Source: a virus
Virus record (IMG/VR): IMGVR_UViG_3300046792_000149
DNA length: 37,282 nt
Reading direction: 5' to 3' (one strand)
Below are positions 3,736-22,946 of this stretch, piece after piece. Position numbers and translations under genes: made by a program. Positions within the stretch are counted from its first letter, which is position 1; the number at the start of each line of letters is the position of its first letter. The notes under the pieces are model-generated. The model was not told the DNA's origin. It did not search any database and worked only from the letters and a program-made list of their open reading frames with translations.

Positions 3736-4036
3736 CGCGAACCGCTGGCGCCGAGCCCATCCACTCGCGCGGCCAGGGAGGCAGATAGCCGAAAGCGCGC
3801 ATGGTCACGCCGAGATTTCTTTCGCGGGTGTGAGTGCCCGCAGGAGCACCGACGCGGCCAAATGTGATTGACTTGACCGCTGAGTCGCAGCCTTCCAAAG
3901 GATCGTCAACATCAGAGAGCGATCGAGCCGCGGAAGGTCTGGCAAGGAGGCCAAGTAGCGGATTCGGCGCAATCTCGTCGATGACGACGAACTCACTGAT
4001 TCCTCTGCCTGTTGCGTCCCGCGAAGTATCCGCCAT
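3698..4036 (-). CDS. Hypothetical protein (112 aa), overlaps the terL 3' end by 44 nt
   Basis: The only plausible frame filling the 3736-3992 gap, with reasonable codon bias. The long overlap with terL makes the start uncertain. Confidence 0.35.
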   Translation of the reverse strand: MADTSRDATGRGISEFVVIDEIAPNPLLGLLARPSAARSLSDVDDPLEGCDSAVKSITFGRVGAPAGTHTRERNLGVTMRAFGYLPPWPREWMGSAPAVRDDGEDEGREVDE

Positions 4037-5417
4037 GTGCTTGCCTTTGCTCTTCGAGATTGTTTAGGTATTCGTCCATCGGGTCAAGTAGGACCTTAGG
4101 TTTTGCAACCGGCAACTCGCGCAACATGTCGCGCGCCTTGCGCCAAGAATAGAGCCACGCGTCGCCGAGGTCTGAATGGTCGGCATTTTCCGCTAGCTTG
4201 CCGGGCTTCTTCCAGCGCACACGCTTGGCCTCACGAATCATCGGCGAACCCTTTTCGACGAAGGTCTTACCCGTGCGCAGGTCGGTATTGAGCCACTCGA
4301 TGTACTGGACCTTCTCTTTCTTGTCGGCCTCCATCCAGTGGATATCGGGCGCATCGACGCGAAACGTCTCGATGGTCTTGCGCGTTGCGTGACCGGCTGG
4401 GTCGTAGACGACGCTCGGGAGCTTGCCGTCCTGACCTGGATACTGCGGCGCGAGCTTGCGGACGCGCGCAAATAGTTGGTGATTGTTCTGCTTGCTCAGG
4501 CCCTCGCAATAGCGCAGCACGCTGAACTGCCGATGCGTCTCGACGCCCGTTGCGGCTATCGCGTCCATGTCATTCCAGCCGAGGTCAAGCCCGAGGACGT
4601 GGGCATAGTAGTCACGTGGCGCGATTTCAATGATGGCTTCTTCGGGAATGAAGTAAACCAGCGCGTCTGGATCCACGATCCACTGGCCGAGCCACTCTCT
4701 ACGATAAGTAACCGAGTCTTCCGTAAGAGCGTACATCGCTCTCGCCTCGGCCAAGCCATCGCGACCAGCACGCACGTAGAACGGGTTTTGGTTGACCGTC
4801 CAGTGGTGGTCGTTCGACCACTCAGGAGAATGGCAACAATCGAAGAAGAACCCGTCCGCGACCTCAGACGGTGTCCCAGTCGCATAGACCTGGCCTCGGT
4901 AGTCGAGGGTCGTCGGCATGATCGCCGCTTTGGCCAGCTTCGCAAACCACTCGGGCGCGAGCTGTGCCTCATCGATCCAAACGAGCCGAAACTTACGACC
5001 GCGAGCCCGTTCGGCGTCTTTGCGCGTGTTGAAGCCGAGAACTTCGATCTTGGACGTGCCCCACGACCAACATCGCTCAGTCCAGCGTTCACGCAGTCCG
5101 AGCTCATAGGCTAGGTTGTACTCCCGGAGGTCTTCCCAGACGATGTCGACGCCTTGCTCATCACTGGGCGCGAAGTAGCAGATACCGGCCGGTCCACCTT
5201 TCCGCAACACACGCAGGCTCTTCCCGAGGAACGTTGTAGTTTTTCCGGCACGCCGACCAGGATCGGCTGCCACCAGTGGTCGCACGTCGTCTCGGAGGCT
5301 GCATTGTTCGGGCCCAAGGAGCTCTTGGAACGCTTTCCAACCCGGCGGCTCATGTGTTTCCTGCGCCTTCAGGACGCGAACCGCGAGCTCCAAAATCCGC
5401 GGGTCCGGGGCGCGCAT
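3993..5417 (-). CDS. terL: Terminase large subunit
   Basis: Walker A DPGRRAGKTT and Walker B-like FRLVWIDEAQ, plus ATGTP coupling motif. The C-terminal RNaseH-like nuclease region has GLDLGWNDMDA and a later HSDLGDAW acidic motif. 474 aa, upstream of portal. Confidence 0.9.
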   Translation of the reverse strand: MRAPDPRILELAVRVLKAQETHEPPGWKAFQELLGPEQCSLRDDVRPLVAADPGRRAGKTTTFLGKSLRVLRKGGPAGICYFAPSDEQGVDIVWEDLREYNLAYELGLRERWTERCWSWGTSKIEVLGFNTRKDAERARGRKFRLVWIDEAQLAPEWFAKLAKAAIMPTTLDYRGQVYATGTPSEVADGFFFDCCHSPEWSNDHHWTVNQNPFYVRAGRDGLAEARAMYALTEDSVTYRREWLGQWIVDPDALVYFIPEEAIIEIAPRDYYAHVLGLDLGWNDMDAIAATGVETHRQFSVLRYCEGLSKQNNHQLFARVRKLAPQYPGQDGKLPSVVYDPAGHATRKTIETFRVDAPDIHWMEADKKEKVQYIEWLNTDLRTGKTFVEKGSPMIREAKRVRWKKPGKLAENADHSDLGDAWLYSWRKARDMLRELPVAKPKVLLDPMDEYLNNLEEQRQAHGGYFAGRNRQRNQ

Positions 5418-7603: not shown

Positions 7604-8179
7604 TTATGCCGCTCGCCTGCGCAACCGTTCGCCAATCGCAGCACGGCGCTTCTGGCACGTCATGGCGTTGTGCCCTTGCGCGGCACAGAACGAGCAGTGA
7701 TGCGTCTGGCTCTTTTTCTTCGGCACGTAGATGCTCTTGACCCAGCCGCTTGCCGGGCAAAACGACGCGCGGTGCCCAACGGCCCCGCACCCTCGGCAGG
7801 TGGGTGGACCAAGTTTTACCTCGCCCTTCGCAGCCAGCGCGGCCTGGTAAGCGTTACGCCGCGCCATCGACATCAGGGCCCGCGTTTCGGATGAACGCGT
7901 CTTGAGCGCGGACGGCGCGATTGGCGTGCGCACTTGCAGCCGCTCCCAGTCCTCGACGGCTTCGGCCTCGGTCTCACGGCACGGACCTTGGTACACCTGG
8001 CCGTGGTCGATGAACCGATAGGCGTAACGCACGATTCGGCCGCTCGAGACCTTTGCGACGTGCTTGCCTGTCTTCGGTCCGCACTGGTCATCGGGCGGGA
8101 CAAGCTCTCGAATCAGCCGGCGCGCTTGTCGGCGCGAAATGATCTTGTGCTCTTGCCCGTCGTCGGTAATGAGTTTCAT
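7604..8179 (-). CDS. AP2-like DNA-binding domain protein with two CCHC zinc knuckles (191 aa)
   Basis: The ATG at 8179 has a GGAGG SD and an ATGA overlap with the upstream gene. The central part, VAKVSSGRIVRYAYRFIDHGQVYQGPCRETEAEAVEDWERL, is AP2-like. The C-terminus carries CRGCGAVGHRASFC and CSFCAAQGHNAMTC, both exact C-x2-C-x4-H-x4-C with the GH dipeptide. The 110-aa N-terminal extension in the track ORF overlaps two upstream genes and was discarded. Confidence 0.65.
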   Translation of the reverse strand: MKLITDDGQEHKIISRRQARRLIRELVPPDDQCGPKTGKHVAKVSSGRIVRYAYRFIDHGQVYQGPCRETEAEAVEDWERLQVRTPIAPSALKTRSSETRALMSMARRNAYQAALAAKGEVKLGPPTCRGCGAVGHRASFCPASGWVKSIYVPKKKSQTHHCSFCAAQGHNAMTCQKRRAAIGERLRRRAA

Positions 8180-8337
8180 CCTCTCGCCTCCTTCGCTTCC
8201 GCCTCTCGTTTCGCCTTGTTCGCCTCGAGTTCGTCCCGCATCGCCTGGCCGAGTAGCGCGCGCAGGGCCATCACGTATTCGCTGGCCTTTCGCGCGCGTT
8301 CCCGGGCCTGCTGGGCGGTGAGCTTTGGATCGGTCAT
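8176..8337 (-). CDS. Hypothetical coiled-coil protein (53 aa)
   Basis: ATGA overlaps at both ends (8334-8337, 8176-8179). Sequence is charged and helical. Confidence 0.45.
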   Translation of the reverse strand: MTDPKLTAQQARERARKASEYVMALRALLGQAMRDELEANKAKREAEAKEARG

Positions 8338-8813
8338 GGCTTGATCTCGCCAAAGATGACTTCCCACCGCGTGCGGGCAACGCCGCCAGTGCCAATCGGG
8401 TCTCGTATAGCCTTGAGTTCGCCCTGTGTGCAGTCAGCCCAGGACCCGCGCGGCTCGAGCTCCGCGCTTCTGACGAATCCGGCGCCCCTGAGCGACGCTC
8501 CACTTTCACCAGCCTGCGAATAGGTCACTATGCGGTGGTATCCGAGGGCCTTCGCAGCTGCGCGCGCCGCACCGTAAAGCATGCCATTCGCCATTGACGC
8601 CCCATCCGTGCACGTCCTGTTTATCTCGAGTGTCAGGCCGTCATCGAGCAAACGCGCCACCGGCCTACCGCAAATTGCAACGCCGCGGATTCCCGTCTCA
8701 TCGGCGACGGCAAGAGAGAACTTGTGCCCACGGCACGGCTTGTTGTGCCGATGATGGTGAGCCACAAATTCGTTAGCTCGCTTCAGCGTCACCGGGATCA
8801 CGCGTAATGTCAT
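8334..8813 (-). CDS. Small GNAT-fold acyltransferase, Mom-like / XF1762-like family (159 aa)
   Basis: ANEFVAHHHRHNKPCRGHKFSLAV ... GVAICGRPVARLLDDGLTLEINRTC ... YHRIVTYSQAGESGASLRGAGF matches my recollection of the small phage acyltransferase family that includes Mu Mom (VA..S.PVAR.LD.G.TLEL.R). The family assignment is from memory and unverified. Confidence 0.5.
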   Translation of the reverse strand: MTLRVIPVTLKRANEFVAHHHRHNKPCRGHKFSLAVADETGIRGVAICGRPVARLLDDGLTLEINRTCTDGASMANGMLYGAARAAAKALGYHRIVTYSQAGESGASLRGAGFVRSAELEPRGSWADCTQGELKAIRDPIGTGGVARTRWEVIFGEIKP

Positions 8814-12209: not shown

Positions 12210-13175
12210 CTAGCGGCGCGTGCGATCGCGCTCGATGCCGCGCTCAAAAGTCTCACGAGCAGAGCTTAGATCGGTCGGCCTCGAGGCGACGTAATCGGCC
12301 GTCTGCTGAAGGTTCGCGTGACCTAGAATCTGCTGTAGTACCTCGATGCGCACGCCGCGCTCGACGGCCCGGGTGGCATAGCCTCGACGGCCAGAGTGCA
12401 GCGGTACGCGCTTCTCCCCGGCGGCGGGCTTGAGTTCGGCGCGTTCGGCGAGCCCGCGCCAGATCATAGACATCCAGTTGCGCGAGTAGGCGCCCCCCGT
12501 GCGCGGAGAACGCAGCACAAGAGGCGAGCGGATGTCTCGAGGCAGGGCGTCGATAGAAGCAAGCAGGCGGCGCGTGATGGGCACAGAGCGCGCCCTACGA
12601 CTCTTGGTGATGGCTGCGGGCAGGTTGATCTGCAGCCTCGCCCGGTCCACCCAGGAGTGCTCGAGTAGGCGTATCTCGGAATTCCTCAGCCCGGCATCGT
12701 TCGCCGCCAAGATGATGAACGTGTCCCGCGCCAGGTCCGACTCAAACAGGAGGTGTTCGACGTCTTCCTCGGTCGTGGCGCTCTCCCTGTGCTTCTTGGC
12801 CTTGAGTCTCTTCGCCTCGCACAGCTGGGGCACCGCGGGATACATCCCCTCGCGTTTCCCCCAGCGCACCATTGCGAGCAGGCAGGCCAGGACGGAGTTC
12901 AGCGAGGTCGCCGCCAAGTCGCTGCGCTCGACGCGGTAGGCGGTCCAGTCGGCGACCATAAGGGAGGCCACGTCACGCGAGCCCCAGCGCTTGATCAGCG
13001 GTCGCAGTAGGTGCGCGGACGTCACCCAGCCGGGACGATGCTGCTGTGATATCTCGCACGTCCTGTAGAGCTCGGCGACGGTGATAGACGGGCGCGTCGG
13101 CGCAATGCGCTCGGACAGCTCCGTTATGAGTCGTGCCTGCGCCGCTAGAAGCGCGCGCAGCTCTGCGTCGTCCAC
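12210..13175 (-). CDS. int: Tyrosine recombinase / phage integrase (321 aa, GTG start)
   Basis: The C-terminal catalytic box has LHSGRRGYATRAV (H-x-x-R) and ILGHANLQQTADYV (catalytic Tyr), with an upstream ...AGLRNSEI... Arg motif. The N-terminal SAM-like core-binding domain has typical length. Confidence 0.85.
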   Translation of the reverse strand: MDDAELRALLAAQARLITELSERIAPTRPSITVAELYRTCEISQQHRPGWVTSAHLLRPLIKRWGSRDVASLMVADWTAYRVERSDLAATSLNSVLACLLAMVRWGKREGMYPAVPQLCEAKRLKAKKHRESATTEEDVEHLLFESDLARDTFIILAANDAGLRNSEIRLLEHSWVDRARLQINLPAAITKSRRARSVPITRRLLASIDALPRDIRSPLVLRSPRTGGAYSRNWMSMIWRGLAERAELKPAAGEKRVPLHSGRRGYATRAVERGVRIEVLQQILGHANLQQTADYVASRPTDLSSARETFERGIERDRTRR

Positions 13176-13313
13176 CTGGCCACCCCCGGGGCTTCAGCGT
13201 CGCCAAAGCCGAGCCGTGAACTGTCGCGCCAATCTTCTGGCGCGTCTTGGTAGTTGTGTGTGCCCTTACGTCGGCCTAGCAAATGTCAGCTAGCGCAATG
13301 CACCAACGACACA

Positions 13314-13399
13314 GGTTTCGAATGTGCGATGACCGCGGTGTCAGTCCCGACGGTGACGCGTGCTTCGAAACCGTATGGGGCGTCGGTTACGGTTTCGGT
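13314..13399. promoter_or_regulatory. Three copies of an ACGGTTTCG(A/G)-type motif upstream of int
   Basis: GGTTTCGAA (13314-13322, +), TTCGAAACCGT (13364-13374, inverted) and ACGGTTTCGGT (13389-13399, +) sit in the 296-bp non-coding region between 13472..13657 and int. A TGTTCAC operator-like heptamer follows at 13418-13424. Confidence 0.35.
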
Positions 13400-13471
13400 C
13401 ACTGCGTCTTGACGCAATGTTCACCAACAATTCGCGAAAGAAATCGCCGCTCGCACGTTCAATGACGGGCG

Positions 13472-13657
13472 TCACGGTTCGTCGGGCGCATCGAGGCGAC
13501 GCAGGCCCAAGTCATCGTCGTAGAGCCAGGGGCGGCCGTCGGTGTCCAGATAGGCAATGACAATGATGTGCGGCGCTGGCGTGGGCGTCTTGCCCGCCGG
13601 TTTCCACCCTGGCTTCGGGATGGAGATCAAGCGCTGGTCGATGAATCGCGGTTTCAT
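13472..13657 (-). CDS. Hypothetical protein (61 aa)
   Basis: The ATG at 13657 overlaps the upstream stop (ATGA). The N-terminal extension in the track overlaps the upstream gene. Confidence 0.45.
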   Translation of the reverse strand: MKPRFIDQRLISIPKPGWKPAGKTPTPAPHIIVIAYLDTDGRPWLYDDDLGLRRLDAPDEP

Positions 13658-13968
13658 CGCGCCAGCTCCTTCGCGCGCGTGACGGGCTTGGCGTCGAGGA
13701 GAGGATTGATAACGCGGTATAGTTCTCCCGACTCGGCGCACGATTTAGCGACGCAATCAGACCCACATTCCTGCTCAGGAACGGCCTCCCATGCTGTCTC
13801 TGTTTCGAGGACCCCGTTAGGACTCTCGGTATCCATCTCCTTCAGGGAAAGCAAGAGATAACGATGGTGCTTGGTGCACCAGCCGCAGCCTAGTATCCAA
13901 ACGACATCGCCCGCCCGTAACGATGCGAACGACGTCACCAACTCGCATTCCTCGCCGTTGATCTTCAT
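13654..13968 (-). CDS. Hypothetical Cys-rich protein (104 aa)
   Basis: ATGA overlaps at both ends. Several Cys pairs (GCGWC, CGSDC..C). Confidence 0.5.
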   Translation of the reverse strand: MKINGEECELVTSFASLRAGDVVWILGCGWCTKHHRYLLLSLKEMDTESPNGVLETETAWEAVPEQECGSDCVAKSCAESGELYRVINPLLDAKPVTRAKELAR

Positions 13969-14204
13969 CGCTTCCTACTCCTCACTTCCTGAATCCACGT
14001 CGCCGCTTCGGCCTCGCGTTCGGCCCGCGCTTTGTCGCGTGCCTTGTCGCGCGGTTCTGCGATGTGCCGGCCGGGACCTTCGAAAGCGCGTCGTCTAGCC
14101 TCCTTCACATCCTTGGCATGCGTTGGCGATACGCGCCGCTTTGCTTCCATGATCTTGAGGGCCGTGAGCGCAGCGGCGCCGAGGGTTGAATTGGGGTCGC
14201 GCAT
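13965..14204 (-). CDS. Hypothetical basic protein (79 aa)
   Basis: The ATG at 14204 is preceded by AGGAGG with a 4-nt spacer. C-terminus is Arg/Lys/Glu-rich and helical. Confidence 0.5.
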   Translation of the reverse strand: MRDPNSTLGAAALTALKIMEAKRRVSPTHAKDVKEARRRAFEGPGRHIAEPRDKARDKARAEREAEAATWIQEVRSRKR

Positions 14205-14215
14205 GGTTCCTCCTG

Positions 14216-14328
14216 TCGGCGTGTCGGGATTCGAACCCGAAACCCAGGTCGCTTACTGGACGTCTCCAGCCGCAGATTCCCGGGAGCCTGATCAATGGCC
14301 GCGGTTGTCCATTACCGCTCCCACGCCG
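14216..14328 (-). ncRNA. Atypical tRNA-like RNA (113 nt): canonical acceptor, D and T arms but no canonical anticodon arm
   Basis: Read on the minus strand. Acceptor CGGCGTG (14328-14322) pairs 7/7 with CACGCCG (14223-14217), followed by discriminator A. The D arm is GCGG-TAATGGACAA-CCGC (14318-14301). The T arm is TCGGG-TTCGAAT-CCCGA (14240-14224). The interior holds a 4-bp stem with an 8-nt loop ATTGATCA (14296-14289) and a 42-nt extra arm (14284-14243). It sits in a 150-nt intergenic gap on the same strand as its neighbours. Confidence 0.55.
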
Positions 14329-14354
14329 AATAGCCGGCGTAGCCGGCGGGGTGA

Positions 14355-14798
14355 CTAGAAGCCGAGCCGTTGATCTTCTGAGTTCAGGTCGAACCCGGCA
14401 GGATGAGACTTCTTCATCTCGGCCGAGAGCTTCTTCAGGTCGGCGACCGACATGCGGTTTTCGGCCTTCACGCCGTAGGTTGCCGGGTTGACGAATGCGA
14501 TCTTTTGCCGGCGGACGCCTTTGTACTCCTCGGTCTTGACCGTTACGCGGCAACGCCCGTGCGGCTCCTGTTCGTTGAACAGGTCCAGGTCTTCGCCCGA
14601 GAAACCAAGCGCGTGGCAGGCGTCCACCGTGCGATCGTACGCTGCGGCAGAAAGCCACCCGGTCCACTCCATGACGCTGCCATCCTCGATTTCAAACATC
14701 ATGACAGCGGCGGGCTTCTGGTCGTTTCCCAGCCTTCCCCACTGAATCCACTCGCTGCCGCTCTTGATCAGCTTCGCTTTGTAATCGCCGTCGTTCAT
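14355..14798 (-). CDS. Putative ssDNA-binding protein (DUF669-like), 147 aa
   Basis: The ATG at 14798 has a GAGGAGG SD with a 7-nt spacer. It lies immediately downstream of the exonuclease-annealase gene. The beta-rich core is followed by an acidic tail ending in an aromatic residue (DLNSEDQRLGF), as in phage and bacterial SSBs. Family assignment is from memory. Confidence 0.4.
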   Translation of the reverse strand: MNDGDYKAKLIKSGSEWIQWGRLGNDQKPAAVMMFEIEDGSVMEWTGWLSAAAYDRTVDACHALGFSGEDLDLFNEQEPHGRCRVTVKTEEYKGVRRQKIAFVNPATYGVKAENRMSVADLKKLSAEMKKSHPAGFDLNSEDQRLGF

Positions 14799-14800
14799 GT

Positions 14801-16321
14801 TCAGTCCTCCTCGCGGTCGGTCAGCTCCTCGCGGGCGTAGAGCCCGAGAGTCGCCGACGGGTAAACCATGCGCACGAGCTGCACCATCGCAGTCTTGCGC
14901 AACATCTCCTTGCGTCGCTTGTCCCACTGCCCTCGGTCGTCCCTCTTGCCTGGTCCCGGCGGCGGAGCGGGTTCGGCAGCTGCAATGCCCGCTGCTACCG
15001 CGTCATCGATCGAATACGTGAACGTCTCCGGCTGCGGGTGCTTCGCGTGCTTCGTCTCCCACGTCGCCTCAGTCATGCTCGACGACACGCGGCGCAGGTA
15101 GACGCAATCGGGGTGCTTCTCGGCGAGCACTTGAATCGTGTTCGCGGCCAGCGACGGCTTGCCGCTGATGACATGGAACATGTCCAGGCTCGTGAGCACC
15201 GGAAAGCCCATCTCCTTGCCGCGGATCATGGTTGCGAGGATGGCCTCGGGATTGCCGAACTTCGTGTAGAGCCGGCTGTTCATCATCGCCTTGGCCAGCC
15301 AGTACGCATCGGCGACGCTGTTTGGCTGCAATGCCGGGTTCGGCGCCGGCACCGCGAGAGCCTTGGTATCGTTCGACGCCGCCGGCTTTGGCATATCGAC
15401 CAGTTCGCCGATGGCTACGGTTTGCGGCTCCGACTCGGGCGCAATGTGCGTTGTCTCGGCCTTCACGCCGAAAACCTTCTCTGCCGCAATGACGCTACTT
15501 GGTACGTCTTCCACGGGTGGCTCCTCCAGTTTGACGATGGGTTTCACGGAACGACCGCTGTACAGGTCGTCGAAGTTGATCGGGACGTCTCGGCGCAGCT
15601 CAATCAGCTTGCGCGTGGTTGCATAGTCGAAGCCCTGGAGCGCCGCCGTCATTGCCGGCGTGAACTGCTTCTCCTCGAGTGCCTTGACGATGCCGGCCCA
15701 GTCGCCATTGGTCTGCAGCATCGCTGTGGCGCGCTTCTCGCCGACGCCCTGACAGCCCTTGATGTTGTCCGATGCGTCGCCCACGAGGGCCAGCCAGTCG
15801 CCCAGTTGCGACATCTTCACGCCGAACTTGGCTTCGGCTTCGAGCTCGGACCACACCGACCAGTCGTGCGTGCGCAGCTGCTTCACGCCGGGCCGCAGAA
15901 GCTGCATCAGGTCCTTATCGGCGCTGCAGATGGCGACGGGGTGCCCACGGCGGATCGCTTCCTCGCACGCGGTCGCAATGACGTCGTCGGCCTCGAAGCC
16001 CTCCGACTCCCAAAGCAGGTAACCGTCCGCGCGCAGGCGCTCCTTGACCCGGTCAAGCGTGTCGTAGAAGTCGTTGCCGAGCTTCTCCCGCTGCGCCTTG
16101 TACGTCGGGACAAGGTCTTTCCTCCAGCTCTTGCGCGAGTCGAGGCAGATGGCCGTCAGTGCGTTGGGGTCTTTCTTCGCGCACCGGGTGACGGCGTCGA
16201 GCGTGGCGCTGAATGCGACCGATAGCGGCCCGTTTTCGTTAGCTCTCCAAGCGGGATGGAACAGCGACGAAAGGTCTATCAGCACCACGCGCTGCTTCGT
16301 TTCGACGGCTGCGGCGGTCAT
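14801..16321 (-). CDS. Fusion protein: FEN/Pol I-type 5'-3' exonuclease + RecT/Redbeta-like single-strand annealing domain (506 aa)
   Basis: The N-terminal half has VVLIDLSSLFHPAWRA, YKAQR, GFEADDVIATA, SADKDLMQLL and LVGDASDNIKGCQGVGEKRATAML, which are 5'-nuclease and H3TH motifs. The C-terminal half has ILATMIRGKEMGFPVLTSLDMFHVISGKPSL and QWDKRRKEMLRKTAMVQLVRMVYP..LGLYAREE. The latter resembles Redbeta GPWQSHPKRMLRHKAMIQCARLAFG..GIYDKDE. The ATG at 16321 overlaps the upstream stop (ATGA). Confidence 0.7.
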   Translation of the reverse strand: MTAAAVETKQRVVLIDLSSLFHPAWRANENGPLSVAFSATLDAVTRCAKKDPNALTAICLDSRKSWRKDLVPTYKAQREKLGNDFYDTLDRVKERLRADGYLLWESEGFEADDVIATACEEAIRRGHPVAICSADKDLMQLLRPGVKQLRTHDWSVWSELEAEAKFGVKMSQLGDWLALVGDASDNIKGCQGVGEKRATAMLQTNGDWAGIVKALEEKQFTPAMTAALQGFDYATTRKLIELRRDVPINFDDLYSGRSVKPIVKLEEPPVEDVPSSVIAAEKVFGVKAETTHIAPESEPQTVAIGELVDMPKPAASNDTKALAVPAPNPALQPNSVADAYWLAKAMMNSRLYTKFGNPEAILATMIRGKEMGFPVLTSLDMFHVISGKPSLAANTIQVLAEKHPDCVYLRRVSSSMTEATWETKHAKHPQPETFTYSIDDAVAAGIAAAEPAPPPGPGKRDDRGQWDKRRKEMLRKTAMVQLVRMVYPSATLGLYAREELTDREED

Positions 16322-16707
16322 TTTCCAGTCCTTTGCTTTTCGATCAGTCCAGCGATATCGGGCGGCGTCCATCCCTCGGGCTTCGCTATTTTGGCGAGTC
16401 CCGGGATTCGCACCTTGGCCATGTTGGCGTCCGTAATGGCCTGAAACAGTGGCGCAGCGTCGATGCCGAGCCGAACGAGACCGCCGAGGGCATAGAACAG
16501 GTCGTCCAGGTAGCCGTCGGCCAGGTCCGCAATGTTCCTGCGCCGAATCGCCGTCTCGATTTCGCTGTGCTCGCTGTCCATCCATTCGAGCCGCAACGTG
16601 TGCTCGTCCCAATCAACTTGATCCTCGGTCAGCGGCGTTGACGGTTGCGGGCCGAAGAACTTTTCTTGAAACGCGCGGACTAGGGCTTGTGCGTCGGAGA
16701 TGGTCAT
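16318..16707 (-). CDS. MazG-like all-alpha NTP pyrophosphohydrolase (129 aa)
   Basis: E-x2-E ... E-x2-D style metal-binding helices: LRLEWMDSEHSEIETAIRRRNIADLADGYLDDLFYALG, then ITDANMAKV...KPEGWTPPD, typical of phage MazG/PRA-PH-like proteins. TAATG overlap with the upstream gene. Confidence 0.55.
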   Translation of the reverse strand: MTISDAQALVRAFQEKFFGPQPSTPLTEDQVDWDEHTLRLEWMDSEHSEIETAIRRRNIADLADGYLDDLFYALGGLVRLGIDAAPLFQAITDANMAKVRIPGLAKIAKPEGWTPPDIAGLIEKQRTGK

Positions 16708-18763: not shown

Positions 18764-19210
18764 TTAGGAGAGACCGCCCGGCCAGTGCTTCGAGTCGGCC
18801 GGCCAGCCGGTCAGCTCTTCGATCTCTTCGGCCCGGTCACGCGGAATAGGCCGCGGGTTATCGGCTCGGCGCTGCATGGAAAGCAGAGACACGCTACACT
18901 TCAGCCGCTTGGCCAGACTGCGCAGCGTGAACCCCTTAGGCTTGACCGACCTGATAACCTCGATGAATGGGTCAGCCGACCGGCCTTTACTGATGGCGAT
19001 GCGAGATTCGAGTTGCATCTGTTCACTACGAGTGTTAACACTTGAACGGTGAACAGGCAAGCGATGTTCTTCCGCGACCGCCTCGAAAAGCTCGGCCTGC
19101 GCCTTGAGCAAAGCCTCCAGCGCAGCATCTTCGGCCTTCAGCATCGCGGCGGCTTTGTCGCGACGGGCAGTGGCGCGGGCAACCTCTTTATCGAGCGGAC
19201 GACGGGGCAC
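18764..19210 (-). CDS. HTH transcriptional regulator (148 aa, GTG start), repressor/Cro-like candidate
   Basis: C-terminal HTH FTLRSLAKRLKCSVSLLSMQRR and an N-terminal coiled coil. Positioned at the divergence point of the leftward and rightward operons. It contains an internal AT-rich inverted repeat (19020-19055). Confidence 0.6.
   Translation of the reverse strand: MPRRPLDKEVARATARRDKAAAMLKAEDAALEALLKAQAELFEAVAEEHRLPVHRSSVNTRSEQMQLESRIAISKGRSADPFIEVIRSVKPKGFTLRSLAKRLKCSVSLLSMQRRADNPRPIPRDRAEEIEELTGWPADSKHWPGGLS
19020..19055. promoter_or_regulatory. Intragenic inverted repeat TGTTCAC-N22-GTGAACA enclosing the palindrome GTGTTAACAC
   Basis: TGTTCAC (19020-19026), GTGTTAACAC (19032-19041) and GTGAACA (19049-19055). 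This is the same heptamer as the 18701-18763 sites. It is a locally AT-rich patch inside the regulator ORF, immediately upstream of an internal in-frame ATG (19018). Confidence 0.35.
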
Positions 19211-19224
19211 GTCGGGAAGGTAGC

Positions 19225-19746
19225 ATGATCAGCCTGGACGCGATGCCGATACAGCTAGGAAGCCGAGAGGAGTTCGCCTGGGTGAGCCCGGAGGATTGGC
19301 TTCTCGTTAATACGTGCGGCTGGCGACGCCGCATAAGCGGCCTTCGGGTCTACGCCGCCAGCCACCATCGCCGCTGCGGCCATGGACGCCACGAAGGCGA
19401 CCTGCATCGTTTTGTCGGTGCTCTTATGGGTATGTCCGGCGCTCGCATCATGGATCATCGCGACGGCAATGGCCTGAACAATACCAGGCAGAATCTTCGC
19501 TCCGCCACCAGGGCGCAAAACAACTCCAATCGAAGACCCAATCTATCAAACCGTGTCGGCCTTAAGGGCGTTAGGCGCTGTGGCCTTAGGTTTCTGGCTC
19601 AGATAACAGTCTCAAAAAGGAATCGCTATCTAGGCCTTTTTGTTACGGCCGAAGCAGCTGCCAGGGTTTACGACGCATGGGCCAAAGCCGCGTTCGGCGA
19701 GTTCGCATGGATCAACTACCCGGAGGGAATCAATGGACAAGGTTAA
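19225..19746 (+). CDS. HNH endonuclease with C-terminal AP2 domain (173 aa)
   Basis: LHRFV...IMDHRDGNGLNNTRQNLRSATRAQNNSN (HNH_3 pattern) is followed by GLKGVRRCGLRFLAQITVSKRNRYLGLFVTAEAAARVYDAWAKAAFGEFAWINYP (AP2 pattern). Confidence 0.8.
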   Translation: MISLDAMPIQLGSREEFAWVSPEDWLLVNTCGWRRRISGLRVYAASHHRRCGHGRHEGDLHRFVGALMGMSGARIMDHRDGNGLNNTRQNLRSATRAQNNSNRRPNLSNRVGLKGVRRCGLRFLAQITVSKRNRYLGLFVTAEAAARVYDAWAKAAFGEFAWINYPEGINGQG

Positions 19747-20386
19747 TGACGTCCCCGCAGCCGCCCCGCTCGCGGCCGACAGGACGAAGTGCCGTTGGTA
19801 CTGCGGTATGACGATGAACGCCATTTATGAGGACGACCGCCAGGTAATCCTGGGCGAGAAGTTCCATGCTTACGATCCGCGCACGAACGCCGACCAGCGT
19901 TGGTGCTCTGCCGCCTGCCGTGACGCCCGCCTCCCTCCCCTCGCGGCGCAGTCGGCCGAGACCGCTCATGATGAATGTTGCGAACCTGGATGTTCTACTA
20001 GCTGCCCGGCGCGTAAGCCCGCCCCGCAACCCGCCCCGGCGTGCGCGCATGGATGCAGTGACACACAGGCGAACACGGCGTGCCCGACGCACGGCAAGCC
20101 CGCCCCGGCGAAGCCTATGCAGCTCCCGCCACAGCGCACCGATTGCGCTGACTGCGGAGGCCCACATGCGGCAGCGGCGTGTCCTGGACGTCCTGCGGTC
20201 CCGTCGTGCATGCGCCCAGGCCTCGGATACGTCGAATGCGACGGCATCGTCAACGGCGGTCTCTGTGAGTCGCACGCGATGCTGTCGCGGATGTCGGTCG
20301 GCAAGCCTGCACGCGTTGAAGGACTGCGCCGACTCGGTCACATCGCCGGCATGCACGACGACGACCTAATTGGAGGTGCGCGGTGA
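19733..20386 (+). CDS. Cys/His-rich protein A (217 aa)
   Basis: The ATG at 19733 has a GGAGGG SD with a 5-nt spacer. 20+ Cys, including KCRWYCGMTMNAIYEDDRQVILGEKFHAYDP, a variant of the module repeated in the next two proteins. Confidence 0.6.
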   Translation: MDKVNDVPAAAPLAADRTKCRWYCGMTMNAIYEDDRQVILGEKFHAYDPRTNADQRWCSAACRDARLPPLAAQSAETAHDECCEPGCSTSCPARKPAPQPAPACAHGCSDTQANTACPTHGKPAPAKPMQLPPQRTDCADCGGPHAAAACPGRPAVPSCMRPGLGYVECDGIVNGGLCESHAMLSRMSVGKPARVEGLRRLGHIAGMHDDDLIGGAR

Positions 20387-20934
20387 GCGACAACGACGTT
20401 TGCGGCAAGCCGCTGTGCCGTCAGATTCGACGGGCGCACGTCTGGACGAATCACACCATCGCCCACGCCTTCGTCGAACCCGTCCCCGCGCCCCAACCGC
20501 CAGCCGACGCGACGAGTCCTAACGACAAATGCGCCGGGACATGTGTCGACGGCGGTCTCTGTGGCTACGTCAGGCGCGCTCACGGGAAGGAGCTGGGACA
20601 AATCGGTCATCGCTTCGTCGAGCCCAAGCCAGACGACCCACCCGTCACGGGCGATGGGGATGCGGCTGAGTTAGATCGACTGGTTGAGGATGCGGTCATG
20701 TCGATGAACGTGAGGCCATATCATTCGACAAGGCAGGCGATGGACAATCTCGCATACGAAGCCTACGCCGCCGGTATCGCCCGAGGGCGCGCTCTCGGGG
20801 CGAGGGAAGAAAGGGCCGACATCATCCGCGATGCACATGAGTCGCACTGCTATTGCTGCCCGGGACGGCCGAGGTGTCCAATCTGCGAATTCGCCGACGC
20901 CATCGCCCGTCGCGCAGGGAGGGGAACGCCATGA
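20383..20934 (+). CDS. Cys/His-rich protein B (183 aa, GTG start)
   Basis: GTGA overlap with the upstream stop and a GGAGG SD. Two tandem modules: CGKPLCRQIRRAHVWTNHTIAHAFVEP and CVDGGLCGYVRRAHGKELGQIGHRFVEP. C-terminal HCYCCPGRPRCPIC cluster. Confidence 0.6.
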   Translation: MSDNDVCGKPLCRQIRRAHVWTNHTIAHAFVEPVPAPQPPADATSPNDKCAGTCVDGGLCGYVRRAHGKELGQIGHRFVEPKPDDPPVTGDGDAAELDRLVEDAVMSMNVRPYHSTRQAMDNLAYEAYAAGIARGRALGAREERADIIRDAHESHCYCCPGRPRCPICEFADAIARRAGRGTP

Positions 20935-22214
20935 ACGATGCGAAGATCAACGCACTGGCCGAGGAATGGTCAGAGCGAAGCATTGAAGTGGGAGACGGCA
21001 TAACGACGCAGCGAAGGATTCGCGCTGCCCTTCGCGAACTAGCCTACGACCACGACACGGAGATACTGGCGCTGCGCCGTCTCGTCGAGGAAGCGAAGGG
21101 CGAACGGGACCGGCTCAAGTCACTGCTGGAGTTTTCGGCAGGGCTACTGAAGGCCAAAGGTACCGAAATCGACCGGCTCAAGGGCGAGCTGGCCGAGGCG
21201 CGGCGGCTGCTGATGACTGCGCCGCTTAACGTTCATGCCGATAGCTTACTTGCGTGGATGAAGGCGCGCACAAAGCATCTCGCCGCCCCGCCAGCCGAGC
21301 AGGTGCAGCCGACGAAACGCGAGTTGGACGTTTGCGCACGTCCAAATTGCAGGCAACCTCGGCACTGCGACATCCACGACCCCGAACGGGGCAGTCACAT
21401 GTTTCTTGAGCCGAAGGTCGCAACCGAGGATTGCGACACGTGCATCGGTCCCGGCGAGTTGTGCGACGAGCACGAGGAGGAAGAGGACCGCGAAGAGGCA
21501 GCCGAGCAGGCGCAGGGGGAGGGGGCGCTCACGCTCGAAATGCTAGACGAGGCTCTACGGGATCATATCAACGATGAATATGACCGATCGACCGCGCTCG
21601 CCAAGCGGGTGGAGGGGCACGAATTCGAAGCCGACGCGCACGGCATACGCGAGTCGATTGACGCGCTAGAGGGCAGGCTGCGCGATTTCGTTGTGGCCGA
21701 AGTGCGGCGCGCTATGTCGCCGCCTTCGTTCGGCCTGACCAAGGAGCAATTCAAGCCGCCCGTGCCCACGCATGCGTTCGTTGTACCGACAGGCCAGACG
21801 TCGGGTTATCTGCTCTGCGCGTCCGAGGGCTGCGGCAAGAGGTCTGTCGATTCTGTTCATTCGATATCCGCAGCACCATCCCCGCCCGAGGCCACCGGGC
21901 CTGGACATGCGTTTCACTGTCTCTGGTATCAGCAGGGCAAGCACAAAGAGGGACCCTGTGACGACAATTGCCCATGTTGGGTATGCGGCTACTTGCGTGG
22001 TCGTCACACCGTCCCCTGTTCTAACCGGGAGGCTTCTATGTCGCCCGCTCTCGAAAACCCCACGGAAAAAAAGCAACCGCCGGTCACTGGGCATGCGTTC
22101 GTGCGCGACCTCGACGGCAGATGTGATAAGCGGCGCGGTGACTACTATCGATGCGGAGAAAAGGCCGACGACCCCATCCACGCCGTCCCGCCCATCACGG
22201 AGGGGCGCAAGTGA
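20931..22214 (+). CDS. Coiled-coil + Cys/His-module protein C (427 aa)
   Basis: ATGA overlap and a GGGAGGGG SD. N-terminal coiled coil, then CARPNCRQPRHCDIHDPERGSHMFLEP and an acidic stretch. Further modules follow: PTHAFVVP...CASEGCGKRSVDSVH, GPGHAFHC...CPCWVCGYLRGRH and TGHAFVRDLDGRCDKRRGDYYRCGEKADDPIH. Confidence 0.6.
   Translation: MNDAKINALAEEWSERSIEVGDGITTQRRIRAALRELAYDHDTEILALRRLVEEAKGERDRLKSLLEFSAGLLKAKGTEIDRLKGELAEARRLLMTAPLNVHADSLLAWMKARTKHLAAPPAEQVQPTKRELDVCARPNCRQPRHCDIHDPERGSHMFLEPKVATEDCDTCIGPGELCDEHEEEEDREEAAEQAQGEGALTLEMLDEALRDHINDEYDRSTALAKRVEGHEFEADAHGIRESIDALEGRLRDFVVAEVRRAMSPPSFGLTKEQFKPPVPTHAFVVPTGQTSGYLLCASEGCGKRSVDSVHSISAAPSPPEATGPGHAFHCLWYQQGKHKEGPCDDNCPCWVCGYLRGRHTVPCSNREASMSPALENPTEKKQPPVTGHAFVRDLDGRCDKRRGDYYRCGEKADDPIHAVPPITEGRK
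22197..22214 (+). repeat. Gene-junction direct repeat, copy 1 (ACGGAGGGGCGCAAGTGA)
   Basis: Nearly identical to 22326-22342 (ACGGAGGGCGCAAGTGA, one G shorter). Each copy contains an SD, a stop and the next start codon. Confidence 0.85.
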
Positions 22215-22342
22215 TGTTCGCGTCGGTCTGCTACGCCTGGCATCTCGATAATGGCTGGAACGTCGTCCATGTTGGACTGCGACAGCATCAAGGGCTGGCC
22301 TACATGGCGTTTTGGCGAAGATGGAACGGAGGGCGCAAGTGA
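22214..22342 (+). CDS. Small hypothetical protein (42 aa) bracketed by junction repeats
   Basis: The ATG at 22214 overlaps the upstream TGA (TGATG) and has a GGAGGGG SD with an 8-nt spacer. Trp-rich (MFASVCYAWHLDNGWNVV...). Confidence 0.35.
   Translation: MFASVCYAWHLDNGWNVVHVGLRQHQGLAYMAFWRRWNGGRK
22326..22342 (+). repeat. Gene-junction direct repeat, copy 2
   Basis: See 22197-22214. Confidence 0.85.
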
Positions 22343-22641
22343 GCGACGTGACGGCCGAGGAGATTGAGCGGGAGCGCGACGCCGCGCACGCGATGGTGAC
22401 CGAGGCGTATCGGATATTCGGATGGGGAATCCAGGAGCTTGCGGTCATGCAGGAATCCATCGCCACCGCCCTTGCCGTTCGCGCTCGAGAGGCGCGACGG
22501 GAGGCGCTGAAGGAGGCGCGGACGGCCGTCGATGGCGAGCAGTTGCACGAGATTGTCGATAATGAATGCGACCGCGGCTATCGAAACGCCATCGATGACG
22601 CCTGTGGAGCCATTCGCGCGCTCATGGGGCCGGAGACGTGA
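22339..22641 (+). CDS. Hypothetical protein (100 aa, GTG start)
   Basis: The GTG at 22339 overlaps the upstream stop (GTGA) and has a GGAGGG SD with a 5-nt spacer. Helical and charged. Confidence 0.5.
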   Translation: MSDVTAEEIERERDAAHAMVTEAYRIFGWGIQELAVMQESIATALAVRAREARREALKEARTAVDGEQLHEIVDNECDRGYRNAIDDACGAIRALMGPET

Positions 22642-22946
22642 GCAACCACTCGACAAAGCGCGACGCGAATCAAGCCGAAATCGTGGCTGCCCTGTTCGCC
22701 GCGGGGTGTTCCGTTCAGGACTTGCACGCGGTGGGCGGTGGATGTCCGGACTTGCTGGTGGGTCGCCTGGCAGATGGCGGGTTTCGCCGTTGCTATCTGC
22801 TCGAGATTAAGATGCCGAAAAACAAGGCCGGCGAGCCGAAGCCGCTGACCCCGGACCAGGTCAACTGGCATTGGATGTGGCGCGGTCAGGCCGCTATCGT
22901 GACGACGCCCGAGGAAGCGTTGCGCGCGGTGGGACTGCTACCGTAA
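22638..22946 (+). CDS. VRR-NUC domain nuclease (PD-(D/E)xK), 102 aa
   Basis: QAEIVAALFAAGCSV...GGGCPDLLVG....CYLLEIKMPK...LTPDQVNWH..WRGQAAIVTTPEEA matches the VRR-NUC pattern (PD ... E-x-K ... Q-x2-W). Confidence 0.7.
   Translation: MSNHSTKRDANQAEIVAALFAAGCSVQDLHAVGGGCPDLLVGRLADGGFRRCYLLEIKMPKNKAGEPKPLTPDQVNWHWMWRGQAAIVTTPEEALRAVGLLP

Follow-up and report, generated by a model that had tools for sequence, protein, structure and literature searches.

The window, the whole 37,282-nucleotide (nt) stretch of viral DNA analysed here, carries, next to a regulator, an early operon in which three overlapping genes, A, B and C, are followed by further small genes.

19225..19746, + strand: HNH-AP2 homing-endonuclease-like gene
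19733..20386, + strand: gene A, 217 aa with 17 Cys, scaffold family A
20383..20934, + strand: gene B, 183 aa
20931..22214, + strand: gene C, 427 aa
22211..22342, + strand: 43-codon ORF, inserted between two GGGCGCAAGTGA junction copies (repeat D20)
22339..22641, + strand: fourth mosaic gene, listed as a 109-aa ORF from 22312

Gene A starts at an ATG preceded by GGAGGG, the GTG start of gene B overlaps the stop codon of gene A (GTGA) and the ATG start of gene C overlaps that of gene B (ATGA), in agreement with the translational coupling proposed in the original prediction. The early operon lies next to the regulator, as that prediction had it, but its first gene is the HNH-AP2 gene and not gene A. 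The HNH-AP2 gene fills the place of the N-terminal cassette of gene A: it starts at the position of the gene A start codon in the related locus L013, and ends just 5′ of linker A1 (below). Downstream, the 43-codon ORF, which has a 42-aa ORF at the equivalent position in L002, behaves as a gene-sized cassette. The fourth mosaic gene probably starts at GTG 22339 (VSDVTAEE...) and has the same island pattern as A, B and C, at 22332–22374, 22457–22536 and 22606–22642. Homologues of A, B and C in other phage contigs are conserved at the protein level and keep the gene order, so the frames are translated, as had been assumed. A, B and C are nevertheless three different scaffold families, rather than the paralogous family expanded within the operon that was first suggested.

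Conserved linkers around variable cassettes

Each of A, B, C and the fourth gene encodes a mosaic in which short conserved linkers surround cassettes that cannot be aligned; alignments of all three families A–C show near-invariant linkers with unalignable segments between them. In protein A, the linkers VPAAAPLAA, PPLAAQ(S/P)AE, KPAPQPAPA and ...LGHIAGMHDDDLIGGAR surround Cys-rich cassettes. Protein B begins with a Cys-Cys-His-His (CCHH) module, the APQPPADA linker, a cassette (here a second CCHH module) and the PPVTGDGD linker, and continues with a helical cassette, the AAGIARGRALGAREE helix, a Cys cassette and an ADAIARRAGRG tail. Protein C opens with a coiled coil (RRLVEEA, DRLKGELAEARRLL), which had been predicted and is modelled by AlphaFold as a helix at residues 23–96 (pLDDT 80–92), followed by PPAEQVQ and AAEQAQ linkers flanking cassettes, an LAKRV helix, the PPEATGPG linker, three H-C-C-H knuckles and an HAVPPITEG tail. 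The acidic stretch noted earlier is also present. Across 24 B proteins, the four slots hold 16, 18, 16 and 14 cassette types, and many pairs have a common cassette in one slot and different ones in the adjacent slot. Cassettes of the same type are found in different proteins and different slots. Cassettes contain 5–10% Cys, against 0.93% in the other proteins of the phage.

The linkers form islands of conserved DNA:

19748..19778, + strand: island A1 (VPAAAPLAA), 31 nt, 100% identical to L001 and 97.8% to L013–L015
19934..19962, + strand: island A2 (PPLAAQSAE), DNA-conserved linker
20015..20041, + strand: island A3 (KPAPQPAPA), DNA-conserved linker
20339..20365, + strand: island A4 (HIAGMHDDD tail)
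20485..20511, + strand: island B1 (APQPPADA), 27 nt including rare codons CAA and CCA
20629..20662, + strand: island B2 (PPVTGDGD), DNA-conserved linker
20761..20807, + strand: island B3 (AYAAGIARGRALGARE helix), shared 14-mers in up to 7 of 7 loci
20901..20935, + strand: island B4 (AIARRAGRGTP and stop), with the RBS and stop/start overlap for gene C inside
21074..21095, + strand: island C1 (RRLVEEA), shared 14-mers in up to 7 of 7 loci
21170..21209, + strand: island C2 (DRLKGELAEARRL), 40 nt, shared 14-mers in up to 7 of 7 loci
21289..21303, + strand: island C3a (PPAEQVQ), with CCGCCAGCCGA common to C3a and B1
21499..21527, + strand: island C3b (AAEQAQGEGA), shared 14-mers in up to 7 of 7 loci
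21592..21613, + strand: island C4 (ALAKRVE helix)
21880..21893, + strand: island C5 (PPEA(T/A)GP), DNA-conserved linker
22178..22214, + strand: island C6 (HAVPPI) and junction CGGAGGGGCGCAAGTGA, with an RBS and stop/start overlap in the junction

These nucleotide-identical linkers framing hypervariable cassettes are the main feature of the locus, one that the original prediction did not contain. Down to the rare codons, linker DNA differs little or not at all among the sequences that carry it, five of them for APQPPADA and up to eleven for RRLVEEA. For APQPPADA, the 24 coding nt are the same in the five listed sequences (four loci and the window), and 14-mers of B1 are shared by as many as 6 of the 7 distinct loci; for RRLVEEA, 10 of 11 listed copies agree over all 21 coding nt, the copy in L009 differing by one base. 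Throughout the 37-kb window, hardly any 14-mers other than those of the B and C linkers are common to three or more of 7 loci. Where 6 or more consecutive residues are identical, linkers show 88% codon identity versus 58% in control genes (p = 1e-19) and, for the same loci on both sides, 82% versus 55% in neighbouring genes (p = 7e-8); the homologues were collected by shared 5-residue words, which biases the set towards linkers conserved as protein but leaves synonymous sites unaffected. Searches with blastn return colinear 24–48-nt islands at 90–100% identity only in 19748–22642, and long matches at 67–80% for other genes of the window.

Such islands might instead be cis-acting DNA or RNA elements within the coding sequence, for example binding sites for phage or host proteins, origin elements or homing-endonuclease targets, with cassette variability being secondary. 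They are the most conserved DNA in these phages and keep rare codons, the HNH-AP2 endonuclease gene adjoins island A1 in the window and the related motif CCGCCAGCCGA is present in both B1 and C3a. We nonetheless regard this explanation as quite improbable: the islands comprise 15 or more different sequences rather than one repeated motif, no iteron-like regular array was found and there is no Rfam match. The islands also fall exactly on the in-frame cassette boundaries and RBS/stop-start junctions, the Pro-rich linkers differ in distant groups of the same architecture, and other loci are without the HNH gene.

Helical islands B3, B4, C1, C2 and C4 are conserved as protein even in distant relatives, which would suit A–C being ordinary early proteins, such as replication or recombination proteins or late-gene regulators, with the conserved segments as their core and no dedicated diversification. 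Variable segments would then be loops that tolerate insertions and undergo drift or neutral replacement, at a location like that of lambda O/P and the nin genes. Like lambdoid replication and nin genes, the trio lies between cro-like/regulator genes and a RusA or VRR-NUC resolvase, and no replication gene emerged when the larger ORFs of the window were scanned. However, L001 has its own DnaB helicase upstream yet keeps A, B and C, gene B is absent or a remnant in L009 and L008, and synonymous sites in linkers are more conserved than those in neighbouring genes. Nor are the cassettes featureless, with their high Cys content and recognizable knuckle patterns, and we consider the ordinary-protein explanation unlikely. 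Identity as lambda O/P- or DnaB-type replication proteins was rejected, given the absence of any Pfam, PHROG or NCBIfam match or iteron array and the separate DnaB of L001.

Cys/His cassettes of several types

Seven Cys/His cassettes can be delineated in A, B and C:

20401..20481, + strand: CCHH-HxF copy 1 (B, C7–P33), CGKPLCRQIRRAHVWTNHTIAHAFVEP
20542..20625, + strand: CCHH-HxF copy 2 (B, C54–P81), CVDGGLCGYVRRAHGKELGQIGHRFVEP
21333..21413, + strand: CCHH-HxF copy 3 (C, C135–P161), CARPNCRQPRHCDIHDPERGSHMFLEP
19790..19918, + strand: four-Cys cassette of A (C-x3-C-G...W-C-S-A-A-C), a type other than CCHH-HxF
21771..21869, + strand: H-C-C-H knuckle 1 of C, HAFVVPTGQTSGYLLCASEGCGKRSVDSVHSIS
21906..22016, + strand: H-C-C-H knuckle 2 of C, HAFHCLWYQQGKHKEGPCDDNCPCWVCGYLRGRHTVP
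22092..22190, + strand: H-C-C-H knuckle 3 of C, the family-conserved C-terminal knuckle, HAFVRDLDGRCDKRRGDYYRCGEKADDPIHAVP

The CCHH-HxF module is an undescribed Cys-Cys-His-His ‘HxF(V/L)EP’ knuckle with the consensus D-R-C-A-x3-C-G-x2-R-x2-H-x5-12-H-A-F-V-E-P. The repetition that drew attention to the locus is real: B and C contain seven H-x-F matches versus 0.51 expected (none of 20,000 shuffles reached 7), four HAF versus 0.05, and three full C-x4-5-C...H...H-x-F patterns versus 0.002, although one of the seven, HEF at C230, is in a predicted helix and probably incidental. A profile built from homologues only, excluding the window copies, finds copy 1 at 24.5 bits (B residues 4–35), copy 2 at 22.5 bits (B 45–83) and copy 3 at 18.0 bits (C 133–162), and none in protein A. 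Three of the four copies originally singled out as clearest, two in B and one in C, therefore stand. The fourth, KCRWYC...FHAYDP in A, is rejected, and with it the claim that all three proteins carry the module, because the profile is blank in A and homologues show a four-Cys cassette in the same segment (C-x3-C-G...W-C-S-x2-C-R-D-A-R), with H-A-Y not conserved. This four-Cys cassette has no Pfam match.

That B and C both carry the module is explained by its being one of many interchangeable cassettes across slots and proteins. The end of copy 2, KELGQIGHRFVEP, recurs in proteins P0009, P0011 and P0015. Copy 3 occupies the slot between two AEQ-Q linkers of C; its BLASTP matches are N-terminal B-family cassettes, and it has close relatives in P0072, P0073 and P0091. 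Alone or in tandem, the module occurs in unrelated small proteins (four times in P0070, three times in P0085, and in P0087, P0089, P0090 and P0092). Conservation of its C, C, H and H is complete or at least 90%, and C, C, R, H, H, F, V, E and P vary little or not at all among distant B-like proteins, which keep module and helices with different, group-specific Pro-rich linkers. As first supposed, none of the libraries searched names the module: it has no match in Pfam, NCBIfam, PHROGs, PADLOC, PDB sequences (a profile search included) or, by Foldseek, PDB and BFVD. No Pfam family appears at E ≤ 1 for whole proteins or at E ≤ 10 for isolated modules, distant carriers give only sub-threshold Pfam matches, and no well-described zinc-finger family was matched in profile searches. 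At E ≤ 1e-3 the module profile finds only 35 of 1.84 billion representative proteins.

AlphaFold predicts copy 1 as a β-hairpin and short helix (pLDDT 81–89), the helix covering only residues 16–20, around the first His; confidence is low (pLDDT below 50) for the second module of B and most of the C terminus of C. One Zn is probably bound per module, with C, C, H and the H-x-F His as ligands. The module resembles C2H2/CCHH fingers in the order C, C, H, H, in having its Cys pair on a predicted hairpin and one His on a short helix, and in tandem copies with conserved linkers between them. Its spacing, C-x4(-12)-C-x6-7-H-x5-12-H, is unlike that of classical C2H2 fingers (C-x2-4-C-x12-H-x3-5-H), as had been pointed out, and its second His lies outside the helix, in the H-x-F-V-E-P strand, whereas both His of a classical finger are on one helix. 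With no Pfam zinc-finger match at E ≤ 10, a classical C2H2 finger was rejected. THAP domains, of about 90 residues, have the pattern C-x2-4-C-x35-53-C-x2-H with H-x-F-P and a C-terminal AVPTIF box. The likeness of the module (C-x4-C, then H-x-F-x-x-P) and of the H-A-V-P-P-I tail of C is superficial: the unit is about 27 residues, without a second C-x2-H pair at 35–53 residues or a Pfam THAP match.

The three H-C-C-H knuckles of the window's protein C lie in tandem. What had been described as ‘permuted’ module copies are real and correspond to the conserved C-family C-terminal knuckle (GPG-H-A-F...C...C-G...H-A-V-P-P), in which H, C and H are invariant among 17 aligned copies. Short conserved peptides on both sides of variable Cys-rich segments, and AEQAQ and EAAGP linkers repeated around optional cassettes, would also be expected of precursors, as in polyproteins or multi-core RiPP precursors, with linkers as recognition or cleavage sites and cassettes released or modified as small peptides. 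We find this barely credible. Among the other operon genes, no protease or modifying enzyme is named by Pfam, PHROGs or NCBIfam, and related loci have none annotated there; the scaffolds contain long predicted helices and a coiled coil; and peptide recognition does not require conserved synonymous sites.

Apparent cassette exchange and its possible role

L016 matches the window at 19748–20113 with 96.7% identity, and the neighbouring cassettes are not shared. L013–L015, which have the same arrangement and come from three different samples, match 20637–20935 at 95.7%, and the cassette to the left is not shared. From their sequences, related phages appear to exchange mini-domains like cassettes, which reassort between phages and move between proteins. 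Many homologues sit on 1–4-kb metagenome contigs, and assembly chimerism at linkers in common could account for some of what looks like reassortment. That it is largely such an artefact, and real genomes less mosaic, seems very improbable to us. Co-occurring strains that share 25–40-nt linkers would lead de Bruijn graphs to join wrong paths, contigs are very short for most homologues, and several variants can come from one sample (3300049448 is the source of both L006 and L009). Nonetheless, the 37-kb window shows the linker/cassette layout, as do contigs of 56, 44.5, 36, 24, 17.8 and 9.9 kb, P0003 lies on 7 contigs, the three shown being from three samples with the same arrangement, and the DNA-level island pattern is independent of cassette joining.

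The best explanation as a whole, to which we give an even chance, is that a temperate phage makes, from A, B, C and the small gene after them, a set of co-translated early accessory proteins, scaffolds displaying exchangeable zinc knuckles and diversified by homologous recombination at the linkers, where zinc, mechanism and function are the putative elements. A constant scaffold of coiled coil or helices and short Pro/Ala/Gly-rich linkers would display a string of exchangeable mini-domains of about 25–60 residues each, most of them Cys/His-rich zinc knuckles of several unrelated types, CCHH-HxF being one. Kept nucleotide-identical across related phages, the linkers would serve as 15–40-nt homology anchors, allowing homologous recombination with co-infecting phages or resident prophages to swap single cassettes in frame. 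The swapping agent would probably be the phage's own exonuclease/annealase, with homing-endonuclease cuts perhaps stimulating exchange at times; the window has an exo/RecT-like fusion gene at 14801–16612, and related loci have exonuclease/Mgm101 or DUF3799 genes. Repeated linkers (AEQAQ, EAAGP) would let cassettes be gained or lost, and populations would in this way come to carry a combinatorial repertoire.

The window contains no silent donor copy of any linker, each occurring once and on one strand, and any exchange would therefore have to take place between genomes. Shufflons or invertible segments were rejected on the same grounds, the integrase at 12210–13175 being the only recombinase found. 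A diversity-generating retroelement target was also rejected: there is no second island copy in the window, variation is by whole-cassette replacement, and the family scans run on the window found no reverse transcriptase.

As the weakest step of the proposal, cassettes may be recognition surfaces for variable host targets, either defence/takeover targets or nucleic acids, in which case diversification would reflect an arms race. The A–C proteins probably target the host, perhaps its defences, and the host-takeover or nucleic-acid-binding role put forward in the original prediction is plausible. PADLOC, a library whose scope excludes anti-defence proteins, gave no matches for A–C.

In polymorphic toxins, cassettes are swapped at a delimiting junction, VENN in CdiA and PxxxxDPxGL in Rhs, and a related idea is the ‘linker sequence’ form of the modular theory of how phages evolve (Botstein 1980, cited in PMC3157838). 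A–C would resemble both in that conserved junctions mark the exchange of unrelated downstream modules by homologous recombination. Unlike CdiA and Rhs, with one junction, they have many per protein, both within genes and at RBS/stop-start overlaps, and their cassettes are predicted metal knuckles of 25–60 residues without immunity partners.

In the gp38 adhesins of T2/T6-type phages, conserved glycine-rich motifs separate hypervariable segments, recombination in or close to these motifs generates chimeras, and a population-wide library of interchangeable binding elements has been described (Trojet et al. 2011, PMC3157838). A–C would work alike, with conserved motifs delimiting hypervariable segments and exchange at the motifs, which does not imply membership. 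Homology to gp38 was rejected, as there is no PHROG or Pfam match or sequence similarity and the genes lie in an early operon, not a tail-fibre locus. Whereas gp38 is a virion receptor-binding protein, A–C have no evident signal peptide and, judged from their sequences, are presumably intracellular early-operon proteins. Their conserved motifs are Pro/Ala-rich linkers and helices rather than Gly-rich, their variable units are autonomous Cys/His knuckles rather than loops and, unlike in gp38, the pattern covers three to four consecutive genes.

Early operon and its relatives

Genes A, B and C belong to a rightward operon in the roughly 37-kb genome of a temperate phage with a G+C content of about 62%. 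A and B overlap by 4 nt at their stop and start codons, as do B and C, with a GGAGG-like sequence upstream of each overlap.

Genes of the phage considered here
3993-5417 (-): large terminase
12210-13175 (-): integrase
14801-16612 (-): exonuclease/RecT-like fusion
18764-19210 (-): HTH-like gene, leftward, adjoining the rightward operon
19225-19746 (+): HNH-AP2 endonuclease gene, first in the rightward operon
19733-20386 (+): gene A
20383-20934 (+): gene B
20931-22214 (+): gene C
22211-22342 (+): 43-codon ORF, directly after C
22339-22641 (+): small fourth gene, GTG 22339 being the probable start; listed as a 109-aa ORF, 22312-22641
22638-22946 (+): VRR-NUC gene, after the fourth gene in the operon

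The fusion gene at 14801-16612 is a single 603-aa ORF in which an exonuclease domain (phrog_107) and a RecT-like annealing domain are fused. In the related phage locus L002 the partner of the 5'-3' exonuclease is an Mgm101-like domain, and such exonuclease–annealase fusions seem to recur among these phages. No replication gene (initiator, helicase or primase) came up when the larger window ORFs were scanned with Pfam and PHROG, whereas the related locus L001 does carry DnaB. The tRNA and Rfam scans gave no match, the promoter scan returned nothing and terminator-like sites occurred at chance level.

No relative of the window was found among 50,697 phage records by blastn and tblastn, and 185,579 reference genomes, scanned with the C profile and the large terminase, yielded no related prophage. 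Homologues of A, B and C come from metagenome and MAG phage contigs only and form about 20-25 clusters per family, in a search that favours proteins with conserved linker words. Pattern scans of viral and metagenome sequences yielded 3 loci only, and most loci were reached through contigs encoding homologous proteins. The gene order of the homologues is kept in an early-right operon, usually followed by RusA or VRR-NUC and then by opposite-strand lysis or structural genes.

Scaffold-plus-cassette architecture

The main feature of the locus is an intragenic cassette-exchange architecture. In all three families, short near-invariant segments (linkers, or islands) alternate with wholly unalignable ones (cassettes, each occupying a slot). 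Short metagenome contigs are possibly chimeric; the window and the long contigs display the same design.

Conserved segments of the three families
A: VPAAAPLAA, PPLAAQPAE, KPAPQPAPA, ERLERPKLAH
B: APQPPADA, PPVTGDGD, AAG(I/L)ARGRALGAR(D/E), ADAIARRAGRG
C: RRLVEEA, DRLKGELAEARRL, PPAEQAQ (1-3 copies), LAKRV, PPPPEAAGPG (1-2 copies), HAVPPIPEG

Our comparison shows that the cassettes are reassorted and enriched in Cys and His. Across the 24 B proteins, the four slots are filled by 16, 18, 16 and 14 cassette types, and many pairs of these proteins have a common cassette in one slot and different ones in the adjacent slot. The cassettes, unrelated in sequence, contain 5-10% Cys and 2-8% His, compared with 0.93% and 1.55% in the phage's other proteins, and most have at least four Cys+His residues. 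Furthermore, the same cassette type recurs across different proteins and slots: the CCHH module described below occupies B slot 0, B slot 1 and C; B and C proteins alike have an eight-Cys cassette, C-x2-C-x7-8-C-x2-C-x3-C-x2-C-A-E-R-E-G-x-C-C; and the W-C-S-type ribbon of A also forms the end of a B-like protein in locus L010. P0037, a C protein (L006, 7995-8876), switches after PPPPEAAGPG to a B-type C-terminus (DDEAVVREIA...ADAIARRGGK) and is apparently a chimera between genes, joined at the GPG/GDGD linkers.

The homing-endonuclease-like HNH-AP2 gene (19225-19746) fills the slot of A's N-terminal cassette; other loci lack the gene and have about 65 residues of cassette in its place. Its start has the same GTAGCATGA context as that of gene A in locus L013, and its last 14 nt overlap the re-started A, up to a point just before linker A1 (the VPAAAPLAA island, 19748-19778); the enzyme may have the conserved linker region as its target and thereby stimulate exchange. 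The RBS/stop-start junction that closes C, GGGCGCAAGTGA (22203-22214), recurs at 22331-22342, and the 128 nt between the copies are the 43-codon ORF (GTG 22211 to TGA 22342), which ends in the same GGRK* junction, its stop overlapping the GTG start of the next gene (22339). Locus L002 has a 42-aa ORF ending KKGRK* in the same place, and the 43-codon ORF has the look of a complete small gene placed, cassette-like, in a conserved junction between genes (22198-22342). The fourth gene itself (109-aa ORF, 22312-22641) shows the same mosaic pattern as A, B and C, with partly Cys-containing variable segments between its islands.

DNA islands of the fourth gene
22332-22374: encodes VSDVTAEE
22457-22536: encodes IATALAVRAREARREAL
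22606-22642: encodes AIRALMGP

The CCHH-HxF module

The original prediction, that a repeated Cys/His module ending in H-x-F-(V/L)-E-P recurs in all three proteins, is largely correct and holds for B and C. In these two proteins together, H-x-F occurs 7 times (0.5 expected), HAF 4 times (0.05 expected) and the full C...C...H...H-x-F pattern 3 times (0.002 expected), counts that none of 20,000 shuffles reached. A profile built without the window copies recovers B 4-35, B 45-83 and C 133-162. The same profile finds no copy in A, and the A segment that had been read as one belongs to a different, four-Cys cassette, C-x3-C-G...W-C-S-x2-C. A lacks the module, and the proposed expansion of a paralogous family within the operon is not upheld; the idea of an unnamed unit in translated early proteins survives, with metal binding as its putative property.

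Alignment of 19 module copies from the window and its homologues gives the consensus D-R-C-A-x3-C-G-x2-R-x2-H-x5-12-H-x-F-V-E-P, in which C, C, H and F never vary. The supposedly permuted copies are real and correspond to a conserved knuckle of the C family, GPG-H-A-F...C...C-G...H-A-V-P-P, whose H, C and H are invariant in 17 copies and which window C carries three times in tandem. The profile–profile match between the C-C-H-H module and this H-C-C-H knuckle is weak (probability 10%) and covers the C...C-G...H core only; a true circular permutation is thus just a candidate relationship.

As had been suspected, the module has no name in the libraries searched. A, B and C matched nothing in Pfam, PHROGs, NCBIfam or PADLOC; isolated modules had no Pfam match at E<=10, and distant module carriers had only sub-threshold matches to Pfam and PHROGs. 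PDB sequences searched with B, the module profile and the B- and C-family profiles gave no match, nor did Foldseek of the B model against PDB and BFVD. The searchable literature contained no paper with the linker and module peptides, and keyword searches returned nothing relevant. Membership tests rejected the THAP domain and the classical C2H2 finger as its identity.

A 37-position module profile, run exhaustively with HMMER against 1.84 billion representative proteins, returned only 35 proteins at E<=1e-3. Among them are distant B-like proteins with M-x-D-R-C-A...C-G..R..H...H-A-F-V-E-P at the extreme N-terminus. Others bear 2-4 copies in tandem or are stand-alone proteins of 60-68 residues, and some of these others are Lys-/Asn-rich, as in low-G+C genomes. 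AlphaFold predicts a hairpin and a short helix for module copy 1 (pLDDT 81-89), which fits a small CCHH zinc knuckle with putative metal binding. The CCHH-HxF knuckle would be a very small, unnamed metal-binding unit and a new mini zinc finger, and its scaffold evidently tolerates extreme sequence variation, suggesting a possible use in engineering. Outside the operon, a 301-aa ORF (7604-8509, -) has a weak, sub-threshold match to a CCHC zinc knuckle (PF15288, E=0.003).

Linker DNA and proposed cassette exchange

The linkers are conserved at synonymous sites. Their codons are identical or nearly so in every carrying locus, rare CAA, CCA and CGT included. Within runs of at least six identical residues, codon identity is 88% in A/B/C versus 58% in control genes (regulator, integrase, exo-RecT, 109-aa and VRR-NUC; Fisher p=1e-19), and 82% versus 55% when both sets are restricted to L002, L004 and L009 (p=7e-8). 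Across the whole window, exact 14-mers that recur in at least 3 of 7 distinct loci all fall within eleven islands of B and C, apart from three trivial matches elsewhere. In blastn, this appears as a 'picket fence' of colinear 24-48-nt islands at 90-100% identity from 19748 to 22642, fourth gene included; other window genes align over long stretches at 67-80%. Some cassettes are nearly unchanged in particular loci while their neighbours are replaced: 19748-20113 is common to L016 at 96.7% identity, and 20637-20935 to L013-L015 at 95.7%, in the same arrangement in three different samples.

More distant B-like proteins keep the module and helices and use different Pro-rich linkers, which does not fit linkers as universal peptide motifs; the sequences fit linkers that would be homogenized within a recombining group. 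The window holds no extra, silent-donor or inverted copy of a linker or island, and exchange would therefore have to be between genomes.

There is a long-standing argument over whether conserved linkers direct the exchange of modules between phages, or whether mosaicism reflects nothing but illegitimate recombination and subsequent selection. With about 15-20 islands of 15-40 nt, conserved at synonymous sites, framing in-frame cassettes in consecutive genes, the locus is a compact test case for these alternatives, and the islands stand next to the phage's own recombinase genes. Exchange would proceed by homologous recombination at the linkers, with a probable contribution from the phage's own annealase. 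Polymorphic toxins swap cassettes delimited by junctions, and A/B/C, although not members, work in a like manner. Exchange at conserved motifs is described for the gp38 adhesins of T2/T6-type phages, whose motifs are glycine-rich and mark off hypervariable segments (PMC3157838). A/B/C resemble these in having conserved segments that frame variable ones, with exchange there, but are not gp38 members. A DGR target, a shufflon and a recognizable replication protein or initiator were likewise rejected as identities by membership tests.

Tail fibres and DGR targets are the best-known settings of hypervariable binding modules; the diversified proteins of this locus, by contrast early and apparently intracellular, form a new class of hypervariable phage protein. 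The cassettes may bind zinc and could be recognition surfaces aimed at variable host targets, a role suggested by their early accessory position, their extreme diversity and the analogy with receptor-binding proteins. Tentatively, and with considerable doubt, we propose that the nucleotide-identical linkers are dedicated intragenic recombination anchors, kept because they allow the phage population to redistribute zinc-knuckle cassettes from a large common library among its three to four early proteins. Variable host defences or targets would then be faced with a combinatorial repertoire at the level of the population, an intracellular counterpart of tail-fibre cassette swapping, with the module as a new zinc-finger class.

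In L008, a related locus on a 17.8-kb contig, a second, partial B/C set with the islands APQPPADA, ARRAG, RRLVEEA, DRLKGEL and PAEQAQ lies at 13086-14580, about 5 kb downstream of the first, and could be an intragenomic donor.
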